A stretch of 62,785 nucleotides of DNA, from the NCBI GenBank assembly GCA_034002925.1, contig JAVEZP010000005.1, positions 1 to 62,785 of the forward strand, read 5' to 3'. How positions within the stretch are numbered: the first letter of the stretch is position 1; every line of letters begins with the position of its first letter. Source of the DNA: Patescibacteria group bacterium. GTDB lineage: Bacteria > Patescibacteriota > Patescibacteriia > Patescibacteriales > UBA12465. The translations under genes were made by a program, and so were the position numbers. Of this stretch, positions 59,087 through 62,785 are shown piece after piece. The notes beneath the pieces were generated by a model. The model saw only the letters and a program-made list of their open reading frames with translations, was not told the DNA's origin and did not search any database.

Positions 59087-59160
59087 TGGTCGTTAGTGGA
59101 CTCGAACCACTGACCTCTGCGATGTGAACGCAGCGCTCTAACCAGCTGAGCTAAACGACC
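59087..59160 (-). tRNA. tRNA-Val(CAC)
   Basis: Cloverleaf GGTCGTT...CTGCG-TT-CAC-AT-CGCAG...GGTTCGAGTCC...AACGACCA; CCA not encoded. Confidence 0.95.
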
Positions 59161-59171
59161 TTAAATATTAG

Positions 59172-59255
59172 TGCCCGAAGGGGGACTCGAACCCCCACCT
59201 CTTTGCAGAGACTAGCACCTGAAGCTAGCGCGTCTACCAATTCCGCCATTCGGGC
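59172..59255 (-). tRNA. tRNA-Leu(CAG)
   Basis: GCCCGAA TGGCGGAATTGGTAGACGC, CTAGC-TT-CAG-GT-GCTAG, long variable arm; CCA not encoded. Confidence 0.95.
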
Positions 59256-60654: not shown

Positions 60655-61317
60655 TTAATCTAGCAAATACTTTGCCTGAAAGACATCGCGCACATTTTTA
60701 AATATATAAGGTAACTTAACCCCAGCCCGTACAAACTCAGCTGTGCTATGTAGACCACTTAGAATCGCTACAAATTCAATGGCAGGCTGATGATTTTTAG
60801 CAGCCGCCAAATCATGTTCGATGCTGTCGCCAATAAAAATAGTCTTTTCCGGTCTAAAGCCGGCTCCATTCCAAAAATGATTAAATACTGCTGGATCTGG
60901 TTTGCCGGTTCCTAATTCAGGGGTGTGAATGTGAGTGAAGATATTAATATCTATACCCTGCTCCTTAAGGCGATACTCTAAACTAGCGCGATCACGATTG
61001 GTGGCAATCCCTAGTTTACAAATATTCGATAACCTCTTTAAATCATCGGATAGGCCTAGTTGAACAGGATATTTTTGAGCACAACTTATTTGGTAGAAAT
61101 GCTCAATCACTTCCCTGTCTTTTTTAAGAGGCCAATTCAATTCTTCCGCCAGTATTGGAATTAAAGAATGTTCAAAATTATGACCCCATAAATCTTGAAC
61201 CATTCTAAAAGTAGGGCGTTTTACACCAGCTACTTGAGCCGCTTTAATAAGCGAGTTAATGCCCACAGGAATTGAATCCACCAAGGGTCCGTCAAAATCA
61301 AAAATTAAATCTTTCAT
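60655..61317 (-). CDS. HAD family hydrolase
   Basis: IFDFDGPLVDS, KPDP, IGDS..HD. Confidence 0.88.
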   Translation of the reverse strand: MKDLIFDFDGPLVDSIPVGINSLIKAAQVAGVKRPTFRMVQDLWGHNFEHSLIPILAEELNWPLKKDREVIEHFYQISCAQKYPVQLGLSDDLKRLSNICKLGIATNRDRASLEYRLKEQGIDINIFTHIHTPELGTGKPDPAVFNHFWNGAGFRPEKTIFIGDSIEHDLAAAKNHQPAIEFVAILSGLHSTAEFVRAGVKLPYIFKNVRDVFQAKYLLD

Positions 61318-61346
61318 CTGCTTTGTATTTGATTGTAAATAACAAA

Positions 61347-61371
61347 AAGATTAACGATTTTCGTTAATCTT
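61347..61371. other. hairpin upstream of the HAD gene
   Basis: 11-bp perfect inverted repeat AAGATTAACGA/TCGTTAATCTT. Confidence 0.55.
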
Positions 61372-61478
61372 CTTTATTTAAACACACCAGTTTTTATTTG
61401 TCAAAATCCATATTCTAAGCAGTGCCCATAAAGATATTTCTATAAAACAATTAATCGTGAAAATAGCATTTTTTAATT

Positions 61479-61505
61479 AAAAAAGTAGACATTTCTGTCT
61501 ACTTT
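61479..61505 (-). terminator. terminator of the 133-aa gene
   Basis: AAAGTAGACA-GAAA-TGTCTACTTT with a T-run on the minus strand. Confidence 0.7.
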
Positions 61506-61513
61506 AAGAAGTA

Positions 61514-61915
61514 TTAGAACTCTGGAATTATTAATTTTGGATAATAACTCTTAGCCCAAACACTTCTTGTGCATACACCATATATCTGAGATACGGGCGT
61601 AGTATTTCCATTCGGGTAAACAAATGAATAACCCACCCTAATCCTAAGATATTGAATTTTTTGACGGGAAATATTGTATTCTTTACTTCCCCAGCCTTTC
61701 TTTTTTATCATGAAGTAAACTTCAGATGAAAATGAATCCGGCTTTTCATAGATCTTATACAGAGCCCCCGACTCTGTTTTGAAGACAAGCATGCTAAAGG
61801 CATCTTTTCCCAGCATGCCCGGACTAGCTAAGTCTTTTAAATCTAACTCTTGCAGCTCTCTCGCTACATAATAACCATAACCTTGTTTTGCGGTTACATT
61901 ATATATTTTTTCCAT
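61514..61915 (-). CDS. hypothetical protein downstream of the hammerhead and hairpins
   Basis: ORF with an AAGGA upstream of ATG and its own terminator. Confidence 0.7.
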   Translation of the reverse strand: MEKIYNVTAKQGYGYYVARELQELDLKDLASPGMLGKDAFSMLVFKTESGALYKIYEKPDSFSSEVYFMIKKKGWGSKEYNISRQKIQYLRIRVGYSFVYPNGNTTPVSQIYGVCTRSVWAKSYYPKLIIPEF

Positions 61916-61928
61916 GATCCTTTATTTT

Positions 61929-61998
61929 AGTTAAAAATTGAATTAGTTATTAAATCTACTAATTGTTTAATAAACTTAATAACTAACCCAATTTAACT
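61929..61998 (-). ncRNA. long RNA hairpin (28 contiguous bp with 5 G-U, plus 4 bp)
   Basis: 61935-61962 pairs with 61967-61994; the non-Watson-Crick positions are G-U only on the minus strand. Confidence 0.7.
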
Positions 61999-62058
61999 TT
62001 CTTGGCAATGAACTAATAGAATACTTAATTATATTAAATATTTTTTATTAACATCTCT

Positions 62059-62162
62059 ATAAACCCCCTAAAACCCATAGAGCTTAGTGAAGAATAAATC
62101 ATTTTAAGGAGAGAGTAATTAAAATAATTTATTCTTTGCTCTACGGATTTTAAAGGGCTTAT
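62059..62162 (-). ncRNA. long rod hairpin (25 bp + 18 bp)
   Basis: 62138-62162/62059-62083 and 62119-62136/62090-62107; 6 G-U pairs, all on the minus strand. Confidence 0.75.
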
Positions 62163-62164
62163 TT

Positions 62165-62215
62165 TCTTTTTCGTCCTTTTGGACTCATCAGGTGGAGCAC
62201 ACACTCCACGAAAGA
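62165..62215 (-). ncRNA. type III hammerhead ribozyme
   Basis: UCUUUC^GUGGAG-UGUGUG-CUCCAC-CUGAUGA-GUCC-AAAA-GGAC-GAA-AAAGA: complete core and stems I-III. Confidence 0.9.
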
Positions 62216-62415
62216 GAGAAGTTTTTAAACCATAGGATAACTTCTCGAACCAATGTAAGATTTTGCTTAGGTTCTTACAACCAGAAGGCTCTGCTTCCTT
62301 TTGGCTCACCACGTTGCAGGTGACGCAATCAGGTTGTTTTGGAAAGCTCAACCAAACTTAAGGATCTTTTAGTGAATTTCTCTTCACCTTAATCGGGGAT
62401 CAGCCGATGAAATTC

Positions 62416-62784
62416 CTAGTGTTTAGAAAACCTCTTAACGAGGTCTTCTATTTGATAATCTGCCACTTCGGATGGTGAAACTCTTTTCCACCAATCCCCA
62501 TAACAGATCCCCATAGGAATTTGAAATTTTTTTATTACCTCTGCTGCTGACTTTCTGTCAGCAGTTTTTTTTAGGATAATTTTCCACACTTTTGCGTGCT
62601 GGTTTCTCCAGCATTCCGTTTGATAGTAATCTACCACGATAAGGACTTCCTTATCGTAGTACATTATCTCCTTCCCGGCATAAATTTTGTTTTCAAGGTC
62701 TCCCTCGCCCACTCCCTGGGCACGGAGTTGATCGCCGATACCATCGAAGCTATCCACTTCGACGACAACTGAGTGAGAGATTTT
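62416..62784 (-). CDS. hypothetical protein, 5' end truncated by the window edge
   Basis: Frame stays open upstream of the GTG at 62757 to the window end. Confidence 0.6.
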   Translation of the reverse strand, partial: KISHSVVVEVDSFDGIGDQLRAQGVGEGDLENKIYAGKEIMYYDKEVLIVVDYYQTECWRNQHAKVWKIILKKTADRKSAAEVIKKFQIPMGICYGDWWKRVSPSEVADYQIEDLVKRFSKH

Positions 62785-62785
62785 T

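Follow-up and report, generated by a model that had tools for sequence, protein, structure and literature searches.

The window analysed here is a stretch of 62,785 nt from a contig of a Patescibacteria genome of 0.82 Mb and 98% completeness, and at its far end a variable array of orphan genes lies on the minus strand, with a hammerhead motif between two of them. From the upstream gene to the downstream end, the features are:

62416..62785, minus strand: 3' portion of the orphan gene upstream (in P0003, 189 aa)
62357..62416, minus strand: stretch that folds behind the stop codon of the upstream gene and closes with a second boxA-like site
62255..62326, minus strand: motif X, a structured RNA without an Rfam listing
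62164..62251, minus strand: 88-nt module of hairpin plus hammerhead, a direct repeat around an extra gene in metagenome contig L359
62216..62246, minus strand: hairpin with an 8-bp stem, abutting stem III of the hammerhead (predicted fold)
62165..62215, minus strand: hammerhead ribozyme of type III, with its cut predicted between 62210 and 62209 (core, fold, descriptor scan, covariation)
62034..62351, minus strand: 105-aa open reading frame over the ribozyme, very probably no gene
62149..62160, minus strand: boxA-like motif AAGCCCUUUAAA, a degenerate member (8.4 bits)
62075..62146, minus strand: long A-U-rich hairpin, part of the 133-aa gene's leader
61935..61994, minus strand: second A-U-rich hairpin
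61514..61915, minus strand: downstream orphan gene, 133 aa
61482..61505, minus strand: terminator-like hairpin closing the array (consensus match alone)

The window ends at 62785 against a 100-N scaffold gap (contig 62786-62885), which hides at least the first 67 codons of the upstream gene, so this gene is longer than written, and the gap could hide more units. No Pfam or PHROGs family matches the upstream gene above cut-off. A search of 5.8 billion proteins of near length gave the 133-aa protein a single homologue, at 72%, and its gene occurs in one of 101 related genomes, the window's own. Look-alikes of the 61935-61994 hairpin lie at G000:C2:68008-68081 and in G005, G006, G010, G030 and G052. 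Beyond the gap come about 1.1 kb of non-coding leader and then a divergent TrmB-family gene. A promoter-like site into the array (contig 63818, minus strand, 11/12, with TG) stands back to back with a 12/12 promoter-like site for the TrmB-family regulator; the region holds six such sites against 5.6 in shuffles, so only their quality and position count. A divergent pair of this kind is present at five of the six loci examined. Several hairpins and boxA-like sites are also found in the leader (L001 4000-5030, or G000:C5 63000-64030), and its regulator-proximal part is similar in L031, L036, L067 and L195. Two of these, L036 and L067, are records titled as Patescibacteria, and this likeness, like the small and nearly complete genome, agrees with the CPR-like chromosome suggested by the sequence-only reading. 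A TrmB-like gene lies within 2.5 kb at 15 of 80 GTDB loci among the matches listed, against about 0.02 expected from the density of the three TrmB-like genes in the window's genome. It is also found at 9 of 20 longer loci of the order, a count inflated by five positive loci that had seeded the profile (otherwise 4/15). Most array genes are without a Pfam family, and what flanks them is a TrmB-family gene, a HAD hydrolase and tRNAs rather than a prophage or integrase context; one flanking gene is presumably RNase HII-like. Among the 15 same-genus genomes searched, the eight with the HAD neighbour all have a protein of ~425 aa, which we take to be HisS-like, in place of the array. Two tRNA genes at 59087-59255 (minus strand) are the sole matches in the window at Rfam gathering level.

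Read on the minus strand, 62215-62165 holds an intact hammerhead core (C3-A9, CUGAUGA; G12-A15.1, GAAA; U16.1-C17), with no mispair adjoining it and three stems around it, and the letters agree with the invariant core and stems of 6, 4 and 5 bp that the sequence-only reading had described. Stem I has 6 bp and the loop UGUGUG, in which a U.G pair could close a seventh; stem II has 4 bp and the loop AAAA; and the motif is type III because stem III, of 5 bp, is open-ended. An 81-nt region folds into a three-way junction at -17.8 kcal/mol (z -2.39; 3 of 200 shuffles equally good), which together with the open stem bears out the topology first proposed. A descriptor scan of the 820-kb genome gave five loose matches, with 62165-62215 the sole type III among them; no strict match arose in 20/20 shuffled genomes, which gave 0-4 loose matches each. 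The cleavage triplet is UUC, with C17 at 62210. A 5'-U in loop I and a 3'-A in loop II are present, as in 5/5 seed copies (the wider scans imposed these loops), and this sequence fits the sTRSV-like contact that had been suggested, as it is set out in the available part of PMC2632901. The rejection rules for hammerheads in the accessible text of PMC3088659 are not triggered by the window copy. Rfam Hammerhead_3 (RF00008), named earlier as a check, does find the motif, yet at 23 bits (E 0.044) it falls short of the gathering score of 48.5, and a gathering-level scan of the window misses it. The low score, and an open frame that spans the hammerhead, are what one would expect of a chance match within a genuine 105-aa gene. 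That frame, dismissed as spurious from the start, is very probably just that: it begins with TTG, has no Pfam match and is shortened to 80 aa by the extra cassette in L359. The broken frame and the shuffled-genome scan speak against a chance match, and covariation in relatives refutes it, leaving it extremely improbable. As far as its letters can tell, the hammerhead at 62165-62215 (minus strand) is confirmed as a real, sequence-intact type III motif. Its stem III is A-U rich and weak (duplex -1.2 kcal/mol; 17 of 149 are as weak or weaker). Its pairing probability is 0.04-0.08 when folded within 171 nt and falls to about 0.01 within 361 nt, against a family median that is itself no more than 0.09. 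GUC or AUC triplets are reported as fastest in the available part of PMC1636495, which does not treat UUC. The window copy may cleave only partly.

The covariation comes from two sets of relatives. Among 101 related genomes, RF00008 matched seven at E<=1 and none over the cut-off, and inspection of those matches added four copies with the same geometry, from three genomes; across these and the window copy, 11 of 15 pairs are changed on both sides, a number that 0 of 500 shuffles reached. A pattern that fixed only the loops, the core and the first stem II pair, and otherwise required no stem pairing, then matched at least 132 stretches in GTDB, and 128 of the 131 unique ones pass as type III among the matches listed. 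Among the 114 distinct 51-mers in these matches listed, stem I is fully paired in 113 (arm swap mean 5.2, max 12), stem II in all 114 (arm swap 39.5, with the first pair imposed) and a 5-bp stem III in 85 (arm swap 11.1). We read this as strong covariation in 114 distinct relatives, among the matches listed, and self-cleavage by the family, putative as it is, seems to us highly probable. Copies of the family reach 24-45 bits with RF00008, and many fall under the Rfam cut-off. By title, 60 of 80 GTDB matches listed belong to Patescibacteria groups, 11 to other taxa and 9 to a 'bacterium', a share that is biased since the pattern was built from seeds of that group. On viral contigs the same pattern matched at least 124 stretches, and 67 of 69 dereplicated ones are type III among the matches listed; the idea that the hammerhead is specific to Patescibacteria is thereby rejected, because phages carry the same geometry. 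By its sequence, the window hammerhead is a member of a large hairpin-plus-hammerhead family of Patescibacteria and phages. Within the order, our own model found it in 26 of 151 genomes and in 0 of 5 same-genus genomes, and RF00008 had no match in 15 same-genus genomes; the hammerhead is therefore dispensable. In all nine multi-copy genomes the copies lie on one strand and within 5 kb. Among the matches listed, and with a crude ORF caller, a same-strand frame lies upstream of 91 of 125 copies and downstream of 87 of 128, and the hammerhead follows the upstream stop at a median distance of 89 nt. One such array (L201, G136:C50) holds ADP-ribosylglycohydrolase, cytidylyltransferase-like, isochorismatase, adenylosuccinate synthetase and NrtR-like genes. 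Copies were also found in Saccharibacteria, including records titled Nanosynbacter, and at three of these loci (L039, L047, L063) the hammerhead keeps a conserved position, some 250 nt ahead of a 137-aa gene, which we assume to encode ribosomal protein S12; this looks like a vertically kept copy outside the variable arrays. Saccharibacteria are a group with cultured members, so the RNA ends can be mapped in vivo.

The hammerhead is part of a larger module. Stem III has a hairpin directly against it in 62 of 106 cellular copies (shuffles 15-26) and in 47 of 67 viral copies (shuffles 9-16), both among the matches listed. On the other side, 65 of 148 flanks hold a site of at least 6 bits for a motif learned without the window and without a prior consensus, AUGUUCUUUAAA; control windows gave 4 and 4. 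This motif resembles the boxA that the available part of PMC13753749 gives for B. subtilis and E. coli. The window's own site scores 8.4 bits, a value reached by 1.2% of random genome 36-mers, and the second site, at 62368, scores 9.0 bits; for the folded segment that it closes (62357-62416), no homologue was found beyond the same species. A strict boxA pattern had no match within 300 nt of the gene in four 16S leaders. With the learned motif, the best site in the genome's own 16S leader lies at -131 (9.7 bits), two other leaders have weak sites at -133 and -147 (6.1 and 5.9 bits) and the fourth has none there. At the 16S loci of G000 and G019 (L355, L356), terminator-like hairpins and an opposite-strand frame, and not tRNAs, come after the 16S gene, which suggests unlinked rRNA genes. 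The genome gave matches to NusB, RNase III, RNase J and RNase Y and none to Rho, RtcB or RNase E/G. The RNase J, NusB and RNase III matches fall within 7 kb (G000:C1:229133-235757), with NusB adjoining RNase III.

With the viral copies in view, one might suppose that the ribozyme is a passenger of phage-derived DNA, briefly kept and partly inactive, which cleaves poorly and has no role in the host. The same geometry and hairpin in 67 viral copies (among the matches listed) fit this, as do the patchy presence, the weak stem III, the UUC triplet and copies that look decayed, with A.G at 1.1-2.1 (G073), G.U at 10.1-11.1 (L359 copy 1) or a changed A9 (one L083 copy). Against a passenger, PHROGs matched only 1 of 24 array proteins, and a fixed boxA-like pattern follows 31 of 106 cellular copies and none of the 67 viral ones among the matches listed, as a host-specific addition would; strain changes at the ribozyme, moreover, preserve pairing. 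We regard a passenger as quite unlikely. The strain changes come from sequencing runs, 20 of 24 of which hold the stretch among the matches listed, mostly as landfill, wastewater or digester DNA. At least three DNA runs share a change at 62193 that turns a U-A pair into U.G and leaves stem I paired, and a contig of run X5 over 61288-62785 has six differences, this one included, among the matches listed. In run X2 a record aligns over 62217-62412 and continues with 42 unlike letters, and depth drops above 62410, a hint that this run has another upstream gene; depth differences over the ribozyme itself are not taken as copy number. The one RNA run holds 0.05 of the words and does not show this organism: the ribozyme is covered there by a single piece, which matches over 44 nt with 4 differences and is therefore another organism's hammerhead.

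The clearest view of the module in DNA comes from L359, which matches the window at 98% over 1,470 and 224 nt. It carries two copies of the 88-nt module, with 86/88 and 87/88 identities to the window and 85/88 to each other, and an extra gene unit exactly between them, from which it follows that the module marks a junction of gain or loss. The insert holds a 283-aa orphan ORF along with a boxA-like site and a 114-nt element. In the window allele, the sequence 5' of copy 1 and the sequence 3' of copy 2 flank a single module, an arrangement that a crossover between the repeats would give. The polymorphism is seen in one contig, L359, and may be either a gain or a loss. From cut site to cut site the unit spans exactly 1,107 nt and would bear ligatable 5'-OH and cyclic-phosphate ends, and so it is also conceivable that RNA units from ribozyme to ribozyme circularise, to act as circular mRNAs or to be copied back into DNA in a retrozyme-like manner. 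Homologous recombination between the repeats yields the same 1,107-nt unit, however, the genome has no RtcB match and the window allele is single-copy; Perreault 2011 sought spliced or circular products and found none, according to the accessible text of PMC3088659. Circles are, in our judgement, very unlikely. In their variable stems, copies from one genome resemble each other more (0.73 over 30 pairs) than copies from different genomes do (0.44 over 10,266 pairs), and for the hairpins the difference is slight (0.37 vs 0.26). The 114-nt element of L359 is 97% identical to the leader of the window's upstream gene (L001 3888-4001, minus strand, or G000:C5 62887-63000), where Rfam DUF805b scores 42.6 bits, above its cut-off, at contig 62925-62959, just before the gene. 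In an alternative fold, this element forms a long hairpin overlapping DUF805b. DUF805b is above cut-off also in G010 and G033, each time just before an ORF, and look-alikes lie near the hammerheads of L089, L223 and L289. As a general partner of the hammerhead it was rejected, being above cut-off in 3 of 151 genomes.

We consider it reasonably likely that the ribozyme both splits the array transcript and doubles, in DNA, as a recombination repeat for gene units, and the transcript-splitting role on its own likely. RNA polymerase would start some 1 kb before the first gene and read through the array, and the ribozyme would cut the minus-strand transcript after UUC, into gene-sized pieces. Hammerhead cleavage leaves a 2',3'-cyclic phosphate and a 5'-OH (PMC6765202, in the part available). 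The upstream piece would thus end in the hairpin plus cyclic phosphate, a terminator-like end formed as transcription continues, and the downstream piece would begin with a 5'-OH in a base-paired stem, followed by the boxA-like site, at which NusB/S10 would be reloaded. Each gene would thus come to have mRNA ends and a half-life of its own, independent of the genes beside it; in the DNA, crossing-over between copies of the module would insert or remove entire units. Processing of a minus-strand transcript between two unknown genes, as the sequence-only reading had it, fits the orphan flanks and the promoter-like and terminator-like sites. That reading had not picked up the 5' hairpin, the boxA-like motif, the likely part as a cassette boundary or how common the motif is in this bacterial group and in phages. 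Set against our reading as a whole are the weak stem III, UUC in place of GUC, the decayed copies and the dispensability within the genus, and against its antitermination part the lack of a Rho match in the genome and the partial support from boxA in rrn leaders.

The cut could instead be a signal for decay. In glmS the 5'-OH cleavage product is handed to RNase J; if the same happened here, the ribozyme would damp expression of the downstream orphan genes. The genome offers matches to RNase J, RNase Y and RNase III, and none to RNase E/G, and differing stabilities of the products are named as an open possibility in the available part of PMC6765202. The downstream product, though, starts base-paired in stem I, and phage copies lie 20-30 nt before a ribosome-binding site and start codon, as would suit a leader that is kept. 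Decay is an unlikely reading beside transcript splitting with recombination at the module.

Between the module and the upstream gene lies motif X, which consists of a helix, a short CC/GG hairpin, AAGCAGAG and a hairpin whose loop can pair downstream, and which has no Rfam match. It occupies intergenic spacers of the same arrays, whether or not a hammerhead is present; similar sequence lies upstream of both L083 modules and directly upstream of the hairpin in G024. The motif was also seen in L083, L012, L035, L369, L373 and L467 and in viral L374, L378, L388, L406, L410, L422 and L444. Among 18 members, 13 share the same helix, three have compensatory versions and two are doubtful; by eye, pairing of the downstream loop with sequence further 3' is possible in four distinct versions of the sequence. 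The searches gave graded results. The motif X pattern had four non-self matches in 401 genomes against two for the reversed-pattern control, those of L369 and L373 being real by eye, and a model (R2) matched 33 of 151 genomes at E<=0.01, mostly weakly, with three that looked plausible by eye among the 17 inspected. A long exact pattern had no match in viral contigs, and 37 of 44 matches to a 5' pattern were without the 3' core. A 3'-only pattern gave 88 stretches on viral contigs, mostly coding chance matches, and the complementary 5' arm, which that pattern did not require, is present in 7 of 62 distinct viral stretches (shuffles mean 1.4, max 5). In three of nine viral loci scanned, tRNA genes lie near motif X. 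We weighed resemblances to group I intron P4-P7, c-di-GMP-I, SRP, HDV-like, twister, pistol and hatchet and set them aside, as Rfam gives no support for them. We present motif X as a candidate new motif or ribozyme, the ribozyme reading being the bold one. Its context is of the same kind as that in which twister, pistol and hatchet were found, going by the available part of PMC6765202, and the motif is cheap to assay.

If one speculates further, the arrays could form an integron-like cassette system of Patescibacteria with ribozyme junctions, in which a regulator-linked promoter would drive transcription, boxA sites would sustain it and hairpin-hammerhead repeats would cut the RNAs and swap orphan genes, with motif X as an undescribed class of self-cleaving ribozyme; we hold this extended view to be improbable. 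Among the ORFs scanned at the loci read, no integrase was noticed. Integron arrays have one promoter, orphan cassettes and repeated junctions, and in the RiboJ insulator and in RNase III processing of T7 early transcripts cleavage frees a gene from its upstream context. The junction here is a ribozyme and not attC or a protein-cut hairpin. With one genome copy and no RtcB match, the locus differs from retrozymes and viroid-like circular RNAs, whose marks are tandem ribozymes that yield a circular RNA, LTR-like repeats and dispersed copies.

The role of bacterial hammerheads is described as still open in the available part of PMC6765202. A lineage-wide family whose accessory parts are fixed, and a natural strain pair set apart by one gene unit between ribozymes, offer a testable answer at two levels, RNA punctuation and DNA shuffling of orphan genes, in streamlined genomes. 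Our literature search, with most subscription papers outside its scope, found no paper on hammerheads in Patescibacteria, and what is new here is a strain pair in which a gene unit was gained or lost between two modules, together with motif X. Compared with the sTRSV/CChMVd type (RF00008; PMC2632901, in the part available), the window copy has the same core, topology, loop I 5'-U and loop II 3'-A; it differs in being chromosomal and intergenic, with UUC and a weak 5-bp stem III, and in adding a 5' hairpin and a 3' boxA-like motif. The boxA or NusB-S10 sites of rrn and CRISPR leaders, to go by the accessible text of PMC13753749, have a similar consensus just 3' of a helix, and NusB is matched in this genome too; unlike those, the putative sites here repeat after ribozymes in mRNA arrays, in a genome without a Rho match. 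In the PeSL cassettes of T4-type phages (PMC2839356, in the part available), repeated expression modules allow recombination to shuffle orphan genes, as here, but PeSLs are promoter and terminator stem-loops, whereas our modules are hairpin plus ribozyme behind one upstream promoter in a bacterial chromosome. The closest parallel is with the prophage hammerheads of Perreault 2011 (PMC3088659, in the part available), which flank single changing genes, for which processing to single-gene mRNAs was proposed and which, where clustered, cleaved in vitro and in E. coli. Those clusters have at least two ribozymes flanking variable genes, as do L359 and nine genomes of our set, and the window has one. 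The arrays described here differ in being non-prophage, TrmB-linked and from Patescibacteria, in their gene gain or loss within a strain pair and in their boxA-like motifs, the consulted text of that paper mentioning neither boxA nor terminators.
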